A program made the position numbers. DNA of 50,308 bases, from positions 1-50,308 of the forward strand of contig CAYFYE010000007.1 in assembly GCA_964347285.1 (NCBI GenBank), in the 5' to 3' direction. Position 1 is the first letter of the stretch. Each line of letters starts with the position of its first letter. Source of the stretch: an uncultured Acidimicrobiia bacterium. Lineage in GTDB: Bacteria; Actinomycetota; Acidimicrobiia; Spongiisociales; JAOTWH01. Below, one piece after another: positions 12,001 through 33,000 of the stretch.

Positions 12001-15000
12001 GCCGCCGGCCCCTGCCGGCGCCGCCCACGGCCTCCTACGGTTGGGCAGCAGTCGGAACGACGGTGTCACCGCGGCGGCGCGGTAGCCTGGTGGCCACGCG
12101 GCCCCGAGTGGGCCGGTGACCCCGCAGAAGGAGGGATCTGTGGCCGATCCGATGACCAGGCGCAAGTTCCTCGCCCGGACCACCGTTGCCATCGGAGCGG
12201 TCCTGACCGCCGGCCTCGCCGTTCCAGCCGTCGCTTACGTGCTCGGCACGGCCGGCCAGAGGGCCCGTACCCTGGAGTGGAAGCCTCTCGGGGCGGCCGG
12301 CAAGATCGAATTGGGCATCCCGACCCTCTTCAAGATCACCGTCGAGCGCACCGCCGGCTGGGTGACCCAGGAGGAGGAGATCTCGGTGTACGTGATCACC
12401 GAGAACGGTCGGGATTTCGTGGCCCTCTCCAACGTGTGCACCCATCTGAGCTGCCGGGTGCGCTGGGTCGACGATCAGCAGTCGTTCTTCTGTCCGTGCC
12501 ACAACGCCGTGTTCTCGAAGACGGGTGAGGTCGTGTCGGGTCCTCCGCCGCGACCGCTCGACCGGTTCGAGGTCAGGACTGAGGCGGGACAGGTCCAGGT
12601 GGCGGTGGAGGTTTGATGTGACTGAGGGGCCCGGAACCTGGCTGGAGGAACGGACGGGCGCCCGGACCGTCTGGGAGACGCTCTTTCTTCGCAACATCCC
12701 CAAGGTGAACTGGCTCTACACCCTGGGGAGCGCCACGCTATTCGTGGTGGTGAACCAGATCGTCACCGGGATCCTGCTCACCATCTACTACGTGCCCAGT
12801 CCCCAGGACGCCTACGACACCGTCAACTTCATCGACAGCAGCCTTCCGGCCGGATGGCTGATCCGGGGCATGCACCGCTGGGGCGCCACCGCCATGGTGG
12901 CCCTCGTGCTTCTCCACATGTTGCGGGTCCTGTACCACGGTGCTTACAAGTATCCCCGGGAGATCACCTGGATCACCGGCGTGATTCTGCTACTGATCAC
13001 CCTGGCCTTCGGATTCACCGGGTACCTGCTCCCGTGGGATCAGAAAGCCTTCTGGGCCACCACGGTGGGGACCAGCATCATGGATGCAGTTCCCGGTATC
13101 GGCGACTGGCTGTTGCGCGCCGCCCGCGGCGGAGAGGAGTTATCTGCCGTAACCCTGTCCCGGTTCTTCGGGATCCACGTGTGGATCCTTCCTGCCGCGC
13201 TGCTGGTCACGCTTGGTTTCCATCTCTACCTCGTGGTCAGGAACGGCATCACCGAGCCGCCCCGCAGGAAAGACTGATCTCCGATGAAAGATGAGGAGAA
13301 GAGGGAGTACCTCGAGGAGTACCAGGAGGCCAAGAAACGGGGCATCCCGTTCTTCCCCGACGCGATCTTCAAGGATGCCGTTGTTGCCCTGCTGGTGTTC
13401 CTGGCACTGGTCGGTTTGGCCGCCTTCATCGGCTCCGAGCTCGACGAACCCGCCGATCCGGCCGCCGAGTTCGATCCCCGACCCGAGTGGTATTTCCTGT
13501 TCCTCTTCCAGCTGCTGAAGCACTTCCCGGGAAACCTGGAGTTCGTCGGCGCGGTCGTGCTTCCCACCGTGGTCATCATCCTCCTGTTCGCCCTGCCCTG
13601 GCTCGACCGCTCCAGGCGCCGCCATATCCTGGCCCGCCCCGTCGTGCTCGGAGTGAGCCTCTTCGTGATTGCCGGCGTCGTGCTGCTGAGCGTTCAGGCT
13701 CTGCTGGAGACCCCGCCTCCCTCCGGTGTCGAGGCGGCCGGCGATCCGGTGGCCGCCCTCTACACCGACAACTGCGCCGGTTGCCACGGGGGAGTGGTCA
13801 CCGTTCCCGAAGGCGTCGACCTGATCACAGTGATCACCACCGGCGGTCACGAGGGCATGCCCTCCTGGAGCGCCGACCTCTCGTCGGACGAGATCGACGC
13901 ACTGGCCGGCTTCATCCTTTCGCCGAGCGGCTTCGCCGTGTTCGAGTCGTCGTGCGCCGAGTGCCACGAGGTCGCCGACCTGAGCGCTGCCAGCCCATCC
14001 GACTTCCGGGCGGCCCTCCAGGAGGGCACCGACTTCGCCCCCCACGCCGGTGCCGGGACCCCCGATTTTGCCGCGGTCCTGTCGCCCCAGAGTCGCACCG
14101 CTCTGCTCAACTTCCTGGTCGCTCCCGACGGCCAGCGGCTCTTTGCCGTCAACTGCTCGTCGTGTCACGGGAGTGCGGTGGCCTGGACGGGGAGCCGAGA
14201 GGAGCTGCGCCAGGTCATCGAACAAGGAGGGCAGCACCTCGACATGCCGGCAATGGGGGCCATCCTCAGCGACACCGAGGTGGCCCAGCTGGCCGACTAC
14301 GTGGTGATGCCGACCGGTGCGACCGAGGGCAGCGCGCTGTTCGCCCGGCACTGCACGACGTGCCACGGTGGCCGGATCCCCACCGCCGAAACCCTGGAAG
14401 AGGCCACCGTCGCCATCACCCAGGGTGGAGGTCACGAGGACATGCCGGTGTGGGGAGAGATCCTGACCGAGGAACAACTCGACGCGCTCACCGATTACGC
14501 GCTCGAAGCGGCGCGGGGCACTCCGGTCATGGCCGGCCAGGAGCTGTACGCCGCCAACTGTGTGGTCTGTCATGGGGAATTCGGCGAGGGCGGACCTAAC
14601 CCGGCCAACCCCGCCCAGATCATTCCCCCGATCAGCACCGCCGGCTACCTGTCCACGCGCGATGACTTCACGCTGCGGGCCATCATTTCCCAGGGCCAGC
14701 CCGACTTCGGGATGTCTCCATTTGGCCTGGCCTTCGGCGGCTCTCTCGATGGGGAAGACGTCGACGCATTGGTGGCCTTCATCAGGTCGTGGCAGGACAA
14801 CCCGCCGGTGGAGCTGCCTCCCGAGGTCCAACGAGGACCTTTGGCGGGAACTCCGGCCGAGGTGTACGAGGAGTTCTGCGCCCAGTGCCATGGATTGGAG
14901 GGTGAAGGCGGAATTGGGCCGTCGTTCCAGGATCCCGCATTCCAGACGGGGATGAGCGACGCCGAGCTCGTCGAGACGATCGATCTCGGACATGCCGCCA

Positions 15001-30000: not shown

Positions 30001-33000
30001 TACTTGCCGCCGTGGGCGAAGTTGCCCGGGTCCTTGAGCGAGAACTGGTAGTTGTAGGCCGCCTTCAGGAGCCGTGGCGTCCAGGCGTTGTACTGGTTGG
30101 GGAACGCCGCCTCGTCTCCGTCCACCTCGCCGTCGCCGTCCGTGTCGATGAAGAAATACGGGTAGGCGGCGCTGTCGTAGACGATCGGCGTACCGGACAC
30201 CTCTTCGGCGTACAGCTGTAGGGCCTCCAGGAGCTTCTCTCTCAGTCCCTCGAGCTCGAACGGCATGCCCTCGGTGATGTCTCCGTCTCCGTCGTAGTCG
30301 ACCTGGGAGCCGGGCATCCGGTTCTGTTTGAGGTCTTCGGTGGTCTGCAGGTCTACGACCACGCCTCCGCCGTCGGCCAGCACCGGGTTGCTGTGGCAAG
30401 TGGCGCACTCGTCGAGCTTGAGCTCGAGGGTGTGTGGGTCGTGGCACTGATGGCACGCGGTGTAACCCTCCACATGGGTGAAGAAGGCGTCGTAGGTCTT
30501 GCCGTCGTACTCATAGCCGCCCTTGGCCTCGGTGCCGTACTTCGATGCGGCGGCGGCGTAGTAGTGGATGTTGAGGAAGCCGAGATCCTCGCTCACCTCG
30601 TCATCGTCGGCACCGGCCTCCTCGATGGCGGCGTTCACGCTGACGGTCGAGTGCCGCCCCTGGTGGCAGTTCATGCACCGGGCCTCGCGTCCGAGGCCGG
30701 TGAGGACCAACCCGGACGGCATCTCCACCGAGTCGAGGGTCAGAGTGACGTCGTTGTGGCACGTCACGCACGAAATCGTGGTCCCCGGATCGACGTCGGC
30801 TTCGACCGAGCCGAAGGCGCTGCCGTCGACACCGAGGAAGTCGAGGTGGCCTGTTTGACTGTGGCATCTGGCACACGTCGACGGTATCACCGGCGGGTCG
30901 TCCTCGTCCCAGTGGCGGAATGCCTCGGCGTTGACGTCGTTGTGGCCCGACCCCGTCCATCTTTCGAGGAAGGGGACTGTGACCTCGGCGGCCGCGACCG
31001 GGGGCGCCTCGGCAGCGGTGGTCTCGGGAGCCGCCTCGGTCTCCTCCGGGGCGGCCGTTTCGGGCGCGGCTGTAGTGTCGGCTGCCCCATCTTCGCACGC
31101 CGCCAACACCAGCGAGAACGCGATCAGAACTGCCCCGAATGAGAGCAACTTGCTGTGCCGTCGCACGACCCGTCCTCCCTGCTTTTGGTACCAGACACAG
31201 TGTCGACAAAACGCCGGCTCATCGATAGGGGCCTATGGCTCTATTGGCGGGTGATTTTTCGCGCTTCTGCGGACAGTCGACCGTGACCGAGCGTCCTCGT
31301 CCGGTGGCGGAGGGTCTCCTCCGAACCGGTGAAGGCCGCTGATCGTTGCGGCGCTTGCACGAGAACCGGTGCCGCGAGAGCTCCGCCCGTGCCTGTCAGC
31401 ACCACTCCGCGGGCGACCCGCCGAGTCGAGTGTCAGGGCGGCGGCTCGGGGGTCAGGGTGCTGTGGTCGTCGTCGTGGTCTCGGAGACGACTGCTTCCGG
31501 CAGTACCTCGAGCGCGTACTCCAGCAAGGCCCTGGCGAACGGCGGATTGTGGACGCCCTTGCTCTGATCTTCGAGGACGAACATGTAGTTCCACATCGCG
31601 TTGGCGACTTCTTCGGGGAACGTGCCCTCGACCGACCGGTTCTCCGACAGTTCCTCGCCTTCGCCGATGTCGACCAGGATGCCGGCGGCGCTCAATCGAG
31701 CCTTGGTCTCCGCCAGCATCTCCTCGATCTCGGTCTGGACTCCATTGCGATCGAAGGTGTCCAGATCGGCATGACAGCTCTGGCAATTGTCCAGGCTGGG
31801 TTCGAACGTGTGATTGCGGCTCTCGCCCATGTGGCAGCCGACGCAGGTGTTCTCGACCGCATAGTGGAAACTCTCCGAGCCGGTGACCCCAAGTCCGCCG
31901 ATGCCGAGCAACATCTGTGATTCGACGCCATGATGTGTGCCGAAGCGAGTGCTACCGGTCTCGATCTCACCGCCGGTCGCCACCGGCAACTCGTTGCGGA
32001 TCTGGTGGCAGTTCGCGCACAGGTTGCCGAGACCCCCGTCGAACGTGCCGCCGGTTGTCTCCATCTCCGCGGGTTGGGCATCCCCGGTCAGGGAGAAGTC
32101 GGCAGCCGTGTAGGTGGTGTGGATGTCGTGGCACGTGCGACAGGTATATGGCGAAACGTTGACTATGCCCTCCACCGAGGGGTCGTGCGGTGGAAGTCCC
32201 GCCTCGATGCGCGTTTCGGCGCCCTCGCTCCCGTGACACCCCGCGCAGTTGGTGTTTTCGCCTCGTATGAATGCCTCTCCGGCTCCGTGCAACGACTCCT
32301 CCAACTGCGCCTGCTTGGAGACGAGGAGCGTCCCGCTTTCGTGGCATTCGGTGCACGTGAGGTCGGTCGCGACGGCCGCCTCGGCGGCAGGACCGGGGGG
32401 CCCCTCAGGACCGGGAGGACCGGGGGGGCCTTCAGGACCGGCAGGACCGGTATCACCACTGCAGCTGGCCAGGGCAAGGAGAAGGCCGACCATCAGCGCC
32501 AAGGGGACGTACCGGCTGAGGGGGCGGTGTCGGTGTTCTCGGTGCATTGGCTCCTCCCAAGACGTTCTGTTATCGCAAGGCGTCCCTATTGGTCATCTTG
32601 TGTGACCCGGACTGTGGGGGATGATTCGGAGGGTTTACAGGCCGGCGAAACAGTCGCCGTCGCGATCGGCAGAATCCGTCCTCCCTGTTGGTCGACGGGG
32701 CCTAGCGTTGATGAACGGCCGGATCACAGATAGGGCCTTTAGGCCCTATCTGGTAGCCAGTTTTTGCCGCTCCGAGGGTCGATTCGGCCGGGCCACCACT
32801 GCAGCCAGTGTCCGCTCCTACCGGGAGTGCGAGGGGGTCAGGGTTCGGCGCCGATCGCTTGTGGGGCGGTATGGCTGCCGGAGAGCCATCGGACTGTCCT
32901 GGCGAGCGGCCATGGTATAGGGGTCAATGGCGTCCCCTGCACACCGGGGTGGTGTCGCCGGCGGCCACAGAGGTGGCACGGTCGCCGGCCGCCGAGTGGA

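Follow-up and report, generated by a model that had tools for sequence, protein, structure and literature searches.

Homologues of ImcH occurred solely in Fe(III) reducers in a 2018 survey, and relatives of CbcL, MtoC and MtrH were reported there from iron reducers and iron oxidisers alike (PMC6295460). ImcH-like and split CbcL-like genes have already been described in the Gram-positive Carboxydocella (PMC6085454), and OcwA, a surface reductase, also reduces nitrite in vitro, with weak activity towards nitrite and hydroxylamine (kcat about 1 per min; PMC6703420). An Acidimicrobiaceae isolate reduces Fe(III) (PMC5894979) and Ferrimicrobium, one of the Acidimicrobiia, both donates electrons to electrodes and accepts them (PMC8350767).

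To this background we add a locus from an uncultured marine Acidimicrobiia bacterium, found in a 50,308-nucleotide stretch of DNA (henceforth the window; see Table 1 for its features). A whole-genome ORF scan placed six of the seven ORFs with at least three CxxCH motifs between 12.1 and 32.5 kb, bearing out the clustering of cytochrome genes described in the survey's finding. In the reading that we favour, with a probability of roughly 0.55, this block is a laterally mobile respiratory island that carries electrons from menaquinol to acceptors outside the cell (candidates being Fe(III) or Mn(IV) minerals, humic substances or other cells) in an otherwise aerobic, monoderm bacterium. It would be an electron-export system of a known kind that turns up here in a new bacterial group, with a few structural novelties.

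Specifically, up to four membrane modules would oxidise quinol, the substrate that we infer, and deliver electrons to c-type haems on the outward-facing side of the membrane: the NrfH-like heptahaem protein ImcH; a split CbcL-type unit, in which the C-terminal helix of the nonahaem g430 would dock it onto g429, a dihaem cytochrome b resembling FdnI; a Rieske/cytochrome b complex of b6 type with seven c-haems on its subunit IV; and, less surely, a trimmed FeS/ActC module like that of Alternative Complex III (ACIII), with eight class I haems. The modules would hand their electrons to two lipid-anchored cytochromes of predicted OcwA/OmhA fold, g438 (2 x 5 haems) and g439 (6 haems), each presumably held off the membrane by an extended linker (a collagen-like stalk in g439), and these would reduce the external acceptor. 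Several quinol oxidases working side by side probably cater, as in Geobacter, for acceptors that differ in redox potential. The extracellular electron path proposed earlier is supported in its ImcH, split CbcL-type and surface reductase parts, and is weaker in its FeS/NrfD module and in a 12-haem gene elsewhere in the genome.

Table 1. Features of the cytochrome block, with positions in the window and the number of CxxCH motifs per gene.
Gene	Predicted product	Position	Strand	CxxCH	Supporting features
	Rieske 2Fe-2S subunit, TAT-type N-terminus (b6f/bc type)	12116..12616	+		Pfam Rieske E 2.3e-11, UCR_Fe-S_N
	Cytochrome b6-like subunit (N-terminal half of cytochrome b)	12618..13277	+		Pfam Cytochrome_B E 1.5e-50
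g426	Subunit IV (PetD)-like domain and seven c-haem domains	13284..15368	+	7	Cytochrom_B_C E 6.8e-11, Cytochrome_CBB3, PSCyt1
g427	Alpha/beta hydrolase	15305..16276	+		Abhydrolase_1 E 2e-38
g428	ImcH-type heptahaem quinol dehydrogenase	16316..17779	-	6 (+ one CX3CH)	3 TM, PF03264 E 1.8e-10
g429	FdnI-like dihaem cytochrome b and monohaem c	18023..19222	-	1	Ni_hydr_CYTB E 6.3e-17, PSCyt1 E 1.3e-8
g430	Nonahaem cytochrome	19215..20387	-	9	TM at 25-43 and 357-375
	Small ORF, 132 aa, upstream of g430	20585..20983	-		GC3 0.73
g434	Four-cluster FeS subunit (PsrB/NrfC/DsrO-like)	23271..24425	+		Fer4_11 E 3.7e-21
g435	NrfD-family quinol-interacting membrane subunit	24383..25768	+		NrfD E 7.3e-41
g436	Signal peptide, Ig-like domain, two TM, class I c and PSCyt1-like c	25765..27141	+	2	Cytochrome_CBB3, PSCyt1, Big_3_5
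g437	Six tandem class I (His/Met-type) c domains	27138..28832	+	6	Cytochrome_CBB3 E 3e-103, 6 stretches
g438	Decahaem lipoprotein, two tandem NrfA-fold pentahaem modules	28929..31166	-	10	Lipobox LAAC
g439	Hexahaem lipoprotein, OcwA-like domain	31453..32547	-	6	Lipobox LASC

The genes named in the survey's finding are real, high-GC3 ORFs; their CxxCH counts were reproduced (Table 1), and we obtained the same domain assignments (Rieske, cytochrome b, Cytochrom_B_C with class I c domains, NapC/NirT, Ni_hydr_CYTB with PSCyt1, Fer4_11 and NrfD). The sequence itself shows the lipoboxes, linkers and terminal TM anchors. The 12-haem ORF g00189 (C3:4133-6655) likewise exists, with identical Pfam E-values (Cytochrome_C7 8e-11, MtrC/MtrF domain 1e-9), but as an added part of the system it is placed amid unrelated genes. 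The operons of the block sit on both strands, and unrelated genes (the g427 hydrolase and the SGL-like g432) lie between them. A Pfam search with the 132-aa ORF returned no match.

Every hallmark published for ImcH, i.e., three TM helices, one CX3CH and six CX2CH motifs, is present in g428, in full agreement with the signature given in PMC6295460. The CX3CH motif is CGESCH at aa 115, and all seven haem motifs are invariant in 15 aligned sequences. The codons for the conserved N-terminus precede the first ATG/GTG/TTG, in a reading frame that stays open up to 17941, and the N-terminal part of the protein matches NrfH (2j7a_C E 2.3e-8; TIGR03153 E 3.1e-18).

Adjacent to this gene, g429 combines a dihaem b part of four TM helices (FdnI 1kqf_C, E 2.3e-7; invariant histidines H18, H60, H168 and H183) with a fifth TM helix, a Thr/Pro linker and a PSCyt1-like monohaem c domain. 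Its partner g430 has an N-terminal signal or anchor, a C-terminal TM helix and nine haem motifs that are all invariant in 16 sequences. Conserved adjacency, an 8-nt overlap of the g430 stop with the g429 start and a strong co-fold all suggest that the two are the parts of a CbcL-type oxidase, as had been proposed. The predicted complex, in which the C-terminal helix of g430 packs against TM4 of g429, reached an ipSAE of 0.89 (median of 3 runs) versus 0.00 for the best of 3 controls, with at least 90% of contacts agreeing between runs and a partner pLDDT of at least 88; 116 of 157 solved complexes attain this mark, as do 2 of 215 mismatched pairs, counts that apply only roughly here because we used our own alignments, and the score may owe something to likeness with the solved FdnH-FdnI arrangement. 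Homologues of both genes adjoin imcH in 18 of 20 relatives' loci within the order. The claim that a g429 homologue lies upstream of imcH is sound as to adjacency but not as to orientation, g429 being convergent with imcH in 8 of those 18.

In the Rieske/cytochrome b complex, the Rieske subunit scores under the cut-offs of the NCBIfam b6f iron-sulfur subunit models, and the b6-like subunit, whose GTG start lies 2 nt past the Rieske stop, scores 228 bits against cytochrome b6 and 226.5 bits against Geobacter ExtP, both under cut-off. The haem subunit, g426, has three TM helices and Cytochrome_CBB3 matches in 6 stretches; six of its c domains are class I and the last is PSCyt1-like. It had been described as the cytochrome c subunit of a bc complex, which is right for the seven haems and incomplete in that the protein also contains the PetD-like subunit IV part of cytochrome b. 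The following gene, g427, was not found beside the cluster at relatives' loci and probably stands outside the system.

In the fourth module, g434 has an internal twin-arginine motif and matches PsrB (2vpw_B E 1.9e-30), with a DsrO score of 170.6 bits that falls below the cut-off of 200; relative to ActB of ACIII (6f0k_B), it corresponds to residues 790-993 only, i.e., the FeS half. The membrane subunit g435 is closest to ActC (8k9e_C E 4.5e-58; also 6f0k_C, 6lod_C and 6btm_C). The C-terminal domain of g436 shares 47 of 90 residues with that of g426, and g437 ends in a TM anchor (527-545). A PSCyt1-like monohaem end is common to the CbcL-type, bc and ACIII-like modules, a feature that is new here and that we read as a shared site of electron transfer to the next carrier. 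Links between the ACIII-like module and the ImcH set are loose: of 150 other genomes in the order, 22 have the module and just 7 of these have ImcH as well; among 15 contig groups, 2 show it adjoining the set; and it is present without the rest in 3 of 7 own-family genomes.

The class I domains bear on the direction of flow, which we infer to be outward. A Met-Pro follows every CxxCH in the six such domains of g426 and the six of g437, as is typical of high-potential His/Met haems. The genome also encodes four haem-copper oxidases and, besides the b6-like gene, two further cytochromes b, so that the class I chains of g426 and g437 could simply feed oxidases. The surface cytochromes might then be the entry point for electrons donated by Fe(II), Mn(II) or reduced humics outside the cell, or by a partner cell, and pass them through the class I haems of g426, g436 and g437 to the oxidases, with the extra Rieske/cytochrome b complex running in reverse to reduce menaquinone, much as has been proposed for the petI bc1 complex of Acidithiobacillus. 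Inward flow of this kind is unlikely in our view. It would suit an accessory bc complex (one of three) that is co-distributed with the multihaem set, the occurrence of CbcL, MtoC and MtrH relatives in iron oxidisers too (PMC6295460) and the two-way electrode exchange of Ferrimicrobium (PMC8350767); against it stand the restriction of ImcH homologues to Fe(III) reducers in the same 2018 survey and the nearest solved relatives of the surface proteins, which are the reductases of iron reducers.

These relatives are OcwA and OmhA, solved surface reductases of Gram-positive bacteria, whose folds the models of g438 and g439 appear to resemble more than those of other PDB entries. For g439 (model pLDDT 85.6; OcwA Foldseek E 2.7e-5), VIA over 48,161 chains ranked OcwA (Z 15.9, rmsd 3.2, 220 aligned, 28% identity) and OmhA (Z 15.3) as the top two, with NrfA chains at 12.2-12.9. 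The g438 model (pLDDT 80.6) had OcwA and OmhA as its top Foldseek matches and VIA scores for NrfA (Z 12.4), OcwA (Z 12.2) and OmhA (Z 11.3); its two modules are 49% identical (E 9e-101) and follow a linker of ~40 aa rich in Ala/Pro/Glu/Thr. After its lipobox g439 bears eight GXY triplets (GDT-GPA-GPE-GPP-GPP-GPE-GPP-GPA). A lipobox with at least 4 such triplets occurs in 108 of 120 close homologues, a conserved collagen-like stalk that is new here, and an SLH cell-wall-binding domain takes its place in three distant members. No Omp85 was found in the genome (90% complete), which fits the single-membrane envelope assumed in the survey's finding, and genes for haem attachment of CcsA type are present; the tethers, at ~7-12 nm, may fall short of spanning an actinobacterial wall.

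An NrfA-type fold is common to nitrite, sulfite and hydroxylamine enzymes. It is conceivable, if doubtful, that g438 and g439 are wall-zone enzymes of NrfA, ONR or MccA type acting on a soluble N or S oxyanion, with ImcH as their NrfH-like partner and no export at all. Both proteins align to NrfA (Z 12-13), the N-terminal part of ImcH resembles NrfH as noted above, OcwA itself has the weak activities mentioned (PMC6703420), and g439 has just five invariant non-motif histidines for six haems, so that one haem lacks an invariant distal histidine and may be substrate-accessible. All 16 haem motifs of the two proteins are, however, CxxCH, with no CxxCK among them; in each module of g438 five non-motif histidines are invariant and a sixth nearly so (at least 90%), enough for bis-His ligation of all five haems; and OcwA and OmhA outscore the enzymes for g439. 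Long tethers and the SLH domains of relatives point to display rather than to a membrane-docked complex of NrfHA type, and four parallel quinol oxidases exceed the need of one soluble substrate.

Electron export as a joint task is also suggested by the distribution of the genes. ImcH, the seven-haem bc complex and g438 co-occur, patchily, within the order: we found ImcH homologues in 33 of 150 other genomes (31 had been claimed), g426 homologues in 27, 24 of them with ImcH, and g438 homologues in 20 (six-frame search), 17 of them with ImcH, counts that overstate the support because kin are not independent. None of the three was found in the 7 own-family genomes. The tally of Cytochrome_C7 in 0 of 485 genomes is untenable, since the g438 family carries PF14522 and its homologues occur in those 20 genomes. 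Of 15 relatives' contigs examined, 9 carry the bc operon and imcH together, 0.1-19 kb apart and in varying orders, and at 15 of 20 loci a g438 or g439 homologue is found no more than ~9 kb from imcH. The g435 protein is 75-81% identical to copies from ImcH-bearing families versus 61-68% to own-family copies, the opposite of the neighbouring RNR gene (own-family 79% and 72%, two full-length matches, versus 71-73% elsewhere), consistent with the region having arrived as a single unit. That separate operons (aerobic bc, ACIII-like, cytochromes) merely adjoin by chance, with the multihaem proteins mainly as electron stores, is highly improbable given this co-occurrence, the recurrent proximity of ImcH, g426 and g438, the shared end domain and the identity trends, even with the largely ImcH-independent distribution of the ACIII-like module, the g427 and g432 genes between operons and the use of both strands. 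Across bacteria, imcH beside a multihaem/cytochrome b unit is not rare and recurs in other phyla, where 65 imcH loci had a g438 homologue beside them in 0 cases and a g439 homologue in 3.

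Only seven ORFs of the whole genome (2.63 Mb in 187 contigs, 90% complete, with the window as its contig C7) carry at least three CxxCH motifs, and six of them lie between 12.1 and 32.5 kb of the window, so that the concentration of multihaem genes is real and the clustering claimed in the survey's finding is borne out. The seventh, a 12-haem ORF on contig C3, has SmpB, glyoxalase and peptidase genes as its neighbours; the Pfam values that had been quoted for it were reproduced. Genes in the region were picked by third-position GC content (GC3) and the ORFs then scanned against Pfam and NCBIfam (see the table below); the small ORF upstream of g430 had no Pfam family match. 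Haem attachment genes of the CcsA type are present, and no Omp85 was found in the genome at its 90% completeness, which fits a single membrane. Given that the genome also holds two cytochrome b genes besides that of the island, as well as four haem-copper oxidase genes (among them one of the ba3 type and a cbb3-like fusion of CcoN and FixO), we regard the organism as an aerobe with an accessory multihaem island. A search for sequencing runs listed four DNA data sets from two studies and no RNA data set. A 681-aa ORF on another contig (G000:C98:5175-7247; L163:3179-5221 in the fetched locus) encodes a divergent haem-copper oxidase subunit I fused to a FixO (CcoO) domain; a CcoP-like cytochrome gene adjoins it, making up a cbb3-like oxidase with fused N and O subunits.

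Genes of the cytochrome island, with the number of CxxCH motifs per ORF
Feature	Position	Strand	CxxCH	Remark
Rieske protein	12116-12616	+		
Cytochrome b6-like	12618-13277	+		GTG start 2 nt past Rieske stop
g426	13284-15368	+	7	subunit IV + c-haem domains
g427	15305-16276	+		hydrolase, unrelated
g430, g429, g428	20387-16316	-	9, 1, 6	three-gene run
Small ORF	20585-20983	-		132 aa, GC3 0.73 (coding-like), directly upstream of g430, same strand
g432	21372-22364	+		SGL-like
g434, g435, g436, g437	23271-28832	+	g436 2, g437 6	operon
g439, g438	32547-28929	-	6, 10	pair

The 487-aa reading of g428, the ImcH-type gene, has three hydrophobic windows (aa 1-19, 35-53 and 81-99, called with a plain Kyte-Doolittle scan rather than a trained predictor), and the same three segments align in 15 homologues. 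Right behind these transmembrane (TM) segments lies CGESCH, a CX3CH motif, at aa 115, with CxxCH at aa 139, 188, 298, 415, 435 and 477; all seven haem motifs are invariant in an alignment of g428 with 14 homologues. The core is NapC/NirT/NrfH-like (PF03264, E 1.8e-10, 41.2 bits against a cut-off of 24.1; NrfH 2j7a_C, E 2.3e-8). Read from sequence, these features are exactly the signature of ImcH homologues as stated in the available text of a 2018 survey (i.e., three TM segments, an atypical CX3CH, six CX2CH and 495-519 aa; Zhong & Shi 2018, PMC6295460). Like the family of Geobacter sulfurreducens ImcH (GSU3259), g428 combines three N-terminal TM segments with a NapC/NirT/NrfH-like core in about 500 aa and is often found near other cytochrome genes, a likeness drawn from the published signature and domain matches rather than from direct alignment to the Geobacter protein. 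Unlike the family of that survey, it is hosted by a single-membrane Acidimicrobiia bacterium (the sole actinobacterial homologue in the available survey text has a single TM segment; PMC6295460), and unlike known ImcH its gene is tied to a split multihaem/cytochrome b unit. The ImcH family is very large, numbering 5048 clusters at E <= 1e-10 among 8000 candidates scored. Upstream of the first ATG, GTG or TTG (17779), and in frame with it, lies the coding sequence for the conserved ImcH N-terminus RTLYRHPLAAVGG, which 14 homologues share: the interval 17779-17941 (-) has no canonical start between the upstream stop and the codon at 17779, and the first canonical start truncates the conserved N-terminus. 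The true start may be a rare codon, or else the sequence may contain an error.

The neighbouring g430, a nonahaem cytochrome, and g429, a cytochrome b with a haem c domain, are two ORFs with an 8-nt overlap. All nine CxxCH motifs of g430 are invariant in 16 sequences, and the protein carries a signal or anchor at its N-terminus and, at its C-terminus, a TM helix with an Arg-rich tail behind it. The partner is an FdnI-like dihaem cytochrome b (PF01292, E 6.3e-17; FdnI 1kqf_C, E 2.3e-7; TIGR01583, E 4.9e-16, below cut-off) with invariant histidines at positions 18, 60, 168 and 183. Co-folding of the two gave an ipSAE of 0.89 (median of three runs) against 0.00 (best of three controls), with at least 90% of contacts in agreement between runs and a partner pLDDT of at least 88; among solved pairs 116 of 157 reach this mark, among mismatched pairs 2 of 215, counts that are rough when our own alignments of relatives are used. 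In the predicted complex the C-terminal helix of g430 packs against the g429 helix that carries His168 and His183. Because this arrangement resembles the solved FdnH-FdnI structure, the score may partly reflect that likeness; the models support a g430/g429 complex. Like CbcL of Geobacter (GSU0274), with which it was compared by domain description rather than by sequence, the pair unites a nine-haem c-type domain on the outer face with a HydC/FdnI-like dihaem b membrane domain, and like the Cbc-like pairs of Carboxydocella thermautotrophica, as described in the accessible part of that report (PMC6085454), it is split into a b-type gene and a TM-anchored multihaem gene. Unlike in CbcL, the two domains are not in one polypeptide (the stop and start overlap), and the b subunit continues into an extra fifth TM segment, a Thr/Pro linker and a PSCyt1-like monohaem c domain. 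Fourteen of the 18 g429 homologues in relatives (L032:7060-8826, L035:6874-8676 and 12 further loci) span 478-601 aa against 399 aa in the window; the alignment consensus has a second PSCyt1-like domain, all end in ...WI(D/A)AGAPE, and the two longest (589 and 601 aa) may have a third such domain.

A further candidate route for quinol oxidation is the complex encoded by the Rieske, cytochrome b6-like and g426 genes. Residues 1-140 of g426 correspond to subunit IV (PetD) of a split cytochrome b, with its three helices, and are followed by six class I c domains and one PSCyt1-like domain; the seven haems assigned to it in the survey's finding thus stand, but a cytochrome c subunit describes only part of the protein, as subunit IV is fused to them. 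The island's cytochrome b scored 228.3 bits with the cytochrome b6 model and 226.5 bits with the Geobacter ExtP model. Like b6f-type and Firmicutes-type complexes and Geobacter ExtOPQ (NF040969/NF040970), the complex has a split cytochrome b (b6 plus subunit IV) and a Rieske protein, although all model scores behind this comparison, the two cytochrome b scores included, lie below curated cut-offs; unlike in those complexes, subunit IV is fused to seven c-haem domains instead of being paired with cytochrome f, c1 or a dihaem c. The possibility that this is the housekeeping bc complex was rejected on account of the two further cytochrome b genes and of the presence of g426 in only 27 of 150 relatives.

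For g435, the best PDB matches were all subunit C (ActC) of Alternative Complex III (ACIII; E 4.5e-58 to 6.3e-51), and g434 (384 aa) matches only residues 790-993 of ActB, i.e., its FeS half. The g434-g437 module is therefore like ACIII (PDB 6F0K, 6BTM, 6LOD, 8K9E) in these two subunits and in having cytochrome subunits on the outer side. Unlike ACIII, it has an Ig-domain dihaem protein and a hexa-domain class I cytochrome (thus class I and PSCyt1 types) instead of the pentahaem ActA and the monohaem ActE; in the operon we found no molybdopterin-like B1 domain, no ActD and no second NrfD-like gene (ActF), with one NrfD gene only. Since B1, ActD and ActF are absent and the cytochromes differ, we regard g434-g437 as a trimmed ACIII-like module and not as ACIII. 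The N-terminal part of g434 (aa 1-115; gene at 23271-24425, +) contains an extension of ~80 aa with hydrophobic segments before a twin-arginine-like motif (DRRTALRLIG); either the start was called too early or the extension is an unusual extra membrane anchor. The monohaem domains that close g426 and g436 share 47 of 90 residues, that of g429 is identical to these two at 30-32 of 93, and all three proteins terminate in ...DWI(A/L)(A/G)GA.

Presumably on the outer side, g438 and g439 are two lipoprotein multihaem cytochromes with lipoboxes LAAC and LASC, respectively; g438 continues with a linker of ~40 aa rich in Ala, Pro, Glu and Thr and two pentahaem modules that are 49% identical (E 9e-101). 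A PDB sequence search with g438, g439 and g430 returned nothing useful, and useful matches came only from fold searches, which for g438 and g439 compare predicted models without haems. The g439 model (pLDDT 85.6) matched OcwA in Foldseek (E 2.7e-5), and against 48,161 chains OcwA came first (Z 15.9, rmsd 3.2, 220 aligned, 28% identity) and OmhA second (Z 15.3, 20% identity), compared with Z 12.2-12.9 for NrfA-type enzymes, 9.0 for MccA and 6.8 for HAO; the alignment covers solely OcwA residues 279-525. For g438 (pLDDT 80.6) the top Foldseek matches, OcwA (E 0.04) and OmhA (E 0.18), were weak, and the VIA scores of its module 1 were tied (NrfA Z 12.4, OcwA Z 12.2, OmhA Z 11.3). Among the surface terminal reductases of Gram-positive iron reducers, OcwA and OmhA are the two with solved structures; according to the accessible parts of their reports, they belong by structure to the NrfA group, and OcwA has two open-coordination haems and weak nitrite activity (PMC6703420, PMC9250108). 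With OcwA (Thermincola potens, 6I5B) and OmhA (Carboxydothermus ferrireducens, 6QVM), the models of the island's proteins share the fold of the C-terminal NrfA-like pentahaem module and helix bundle of those reductases, and the proteins have in common with them a single-membrane setting next to quinol-oxidising cytochromes. Unlike those reductases (9 and 11 haems), g439 lacks the N-terminal c554-like tetrahaem module and has six haems, g438 has the pentahaem module duplicated (2 x 5 haems), and both are lipoproteins with long linkers. Each pentahaem module of g438 (28929-31166, -) also carries two acidic runs (aa 288-300 and 341-352; 621-633 and 675-686), the first reading DYDGDGDITEG or DFDGDGNEAEG and the second DTDGDGEVDGDE or DSDGDGEPDDEE, with D290, D292, D294, E299 and G300, and D623, D625, E632 and G633, of the first runs invariant in 36 sequences; these resemble calcium-binding loops.

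The linker of g439 is of a different kind, with eight GXY triplets behind the lipobox Cys. Among close homologues 111 of 120, and among distant representatives 115 of 150, have at least four consecutive triplets within the first 140 residues (median 7-8 triplets per run, up to 16), against 0 of 120 ImcH matches and 3 of 120 g438 matches as controls, and 108 of the 120 close homologues combine such a run with a lipobox. The GXY run is thus a trait of the g439 family. In three distant members an SLH cell-wall-binding domain (E 1.8e-10 to 1.3e-14) takes the place of such anchoring. The Pfam Collagen model gave 18.7 bits on g439 against a cut-off of 27.2, and 27.8 bits on a relative with 13 triplets; the run may form either a triple helix or merely an extended spacer. 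Our literature search found no paper on a collagen-like GXY run in multihaem cytochromes. Close relatives of g439 with a name come from Acidimicrobiia and Anaerolineales, one name (Anaerolineales) was obtained for ten distant proteins, and g438-type clusters are commonest in Chloroflexota.

We propose that menaquinol, which is general in Actinomycetota and assumed here for the host, would be oxidised by parallel modules, namely ImcH, g430/g429, the Rieske/b/g426 complex and perhaps the ACIII-like module. Electrons would exit via haem chains on the outer face of the membrane and be handed to g438 and g439, as suggested by the shared PSCyt1 domain and the co-located lipoproteins, whose tethers could set the haem heads some 7-12 nm out (inferred at about 0.3 nm per residue). 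Acceptors that differ in potential would be matched by the parallel exits, the highest by the His/Met class I chains, by analogy with Geobacter, in which ImcH, CbcL and CbcBA serve different potential windows according to the accessible parts of two reports (PMC5322298; bioRxiv 10.1101/2021.04.15.440034). Outward transfer to extracellular acceptors is the reading that we favour, at a probability of roughly 55%; the lipoboxes, the linkers and the SLH domain in three family members point only indirectly to exposure of g438 and g439 at the cell surface. A path running the other way, with electrons moving inward, we consider unlikely. More doubtful still is the reduction of a soluble oxyanion. The fold shared with OcwA and OmhA fits the electron export proposed in the survey's finding yet leaves room for catalysis: for its six haems g439 offers five invariant histidines outside the motifs, and for the five haems of each g438 module there are six conserved ones (five invariant and one in at least 90%). 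That the modules of the island have no common task seems very improbable.

Outward transfer could involve a modular wall-crossing design, a 'socket and stalk', which we find possible but would not bet on. Under this design, the g439 family would represent an undescribed form of cytochrome display, in which a conserved collagen-like (GXY)6-13 stalk of about 7-12 nm, built as a triple helix or as a stiff polyproline-II rod, would extend from a lipid anchor and keep an OcwA-like hexahaem head at constant height above the membrane in single-membrane bacteria (Acidimicrobiia, Anaerolineae). Three unrelated quinol oxidases of the island would each have acquired the same PSCyt1-type monohaem end as a standard plug feeding these heads.

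Relatives were sampled as 150 other genomes of the order, and seven genomes of the window's own family. ImcH (53-72% identity) was found in 33 of the 150, g426 in 27 (24 of them with ImcH), g438 in 20 (17 with ImcH) and g435 (E <= 1e-60) in 22 (7 with ImcH); in the own family g435 was found in three of the seven genomes, which lack the other three genes, and none of these three was found in any of the seven. By family of the order, ImcH occurs in 18/19 genomes of f7, 5/7 of f6, 4/14 of f11, 3/18 of f9, 2/18 of f12 and 1/19 of f2, and it was found in none of the other families. Homologues of g429 and g430 (48-65% identity) lie beside imcH in 18 of 20 loci of about 20 kb, co-directional upstream of it in 10 and convergent in 8; of the two exceptions, one is at a contig edge and one lacks them. 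Eleven of these 20 loci also carry a homologue of g438, and four carry one of g439. In 9 of 15 contig groups imcH shares its contig with the Rieske/b/g426 operon at a distance of 0.1-19 kb, and in 2 of the 15 the FeS/ActC module joins both. Overall, the conserved ImcH, split-CbcL and OcwA-like set is found in about a fifth of the sampled genomes of the order.

Outside the order, ImcH at 55-65% identity was found in Zixibacteria, Ignavibacteriales, Calditrichota, Acidobacteriota and Gammaproteobacteria. Among 65 imcH loci from other phyla, an FdnI-like cytochrome b (30-35% identity to g429) lies within 10.6 kb of imcH in at least 32 and a g430-like multihaem gene in at least 30, counts that are floors because many contigs are short; homologues of g438 were found in none of the 65 and g439-like genes in three. 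The inner-membrane core is therefore cross-phylum and common, and it is the outer end that sets the Acidimicrobiia version apart. In five loci inspected in detail, all five have TM-anchored multihaem genes downstream of imcH and a fused multihaem-plus-b gene (the true CbcL type), and two have a separate cytochrome b. Four loci from Zixibacteria, Ignavibacteriales and Calditrichota (L071, L075, L099 and L109) share one conserved gene run downstream of imcH, with an 11-haem and an 8-haem gene (each with N- and C-terminal TM segments), a 13-haem gene and a ~665-aa fusion of a 10-11-haem part with cytochrome b; only L071 and L099 are listed with a separate cytochrome b (4 TM segments), which lies between the 8-haem and the 13-haem gene.

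Several components of this system have precedents: OcwA-type surface reductases are already in print, and the accessible parts of earlier reports describe ImcH-like and split CbcL-like genes in the Gram-positive Carboxydocella (PMC6085454), Fe(III) reduction based on multihaem cytochromes in cultured Coriobacteriia, a class of Actinomycetota (PMC9686372), and an Acidimicrobiaceae isolate that reduces Fe(III), with no pathway given in that part (PMC5894979). Of 647 Actinobacteria MAGs in a lake survey, 3 had EET genes as far as its available text goes, and its authors suspected that the search was biased against Gram-positives (bioRxiv 10.1101/2022.03.26.485925). Our literature search, which covered papers but not their supplements, found none on ImcH-type systems in Acidimicrobiia. 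New here are the conserved linkage of ImcH, split CbcL and OcwA-like genes within a single order of Acidimicrobiia, the bc complex, co-distributed with this linkage, whose subunit IV carries seven haems, the PSCyt1 end domain common to three modules, and the collagen-like stalk. Acidimicrobiia are usually regarded as aerobic heterotrophs. If the set exports electrons, the bacteria that carry it could join iron, manganese and humic cycling once oxygen is gone, and cytochrome-based mineral respiration in single-membrane cells would be far wider than the few thermophilic Firmicutes studied; the class ranks with the more abundant bacterial groups in marine sediments (it made up 4.3% of one benthic community, according to the accessible part of one report; PMC12175321). 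The stalk and the shared end domain offer testable handles on how electrons cross a thick cell wall.

As for the origin of the region, g435 of the window is 61-68% identical to own-family copies versus 75-81% to copies in other families, most of them ImcH-bearing, whereas the neighbouring ribonucleotide reductase follows the opposite trend (69-82% in the own family, with 79% and 72% for the two full-length matches, versus 71-73% in other families). Because the two identities trend oppositely, they suggest, from one marker only, that the whole region was acquired laterally from another family of the order. In five own-family genomes NhaA and ribonucleotide reductase, the flanking genes, sit on separate contigs, which gave no insertion boundary. 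In a midpoint-rooted FastTree phylogeny of 105 ImcH sequences, all those of the order fall into a single clade (43 rows, support 100), separate from the 62 rows of other phyla, with the window sister to the f11 group (support 94). A recent cross-phylum transfer of imcH was rejected on account of this clade. Mis-binning or mislabelling probably explains two public contigs: L053, filed under 'uncultured Gammaproteobacteria', contains an ImcH match that is the same as in G073, which belongs to the Acidimicrobiia order, and L079, filed as 'Saprospiraceae', falls inside the Acidimicrobiia ImcH clade, with g429 and g430 homologues at 51% identity.
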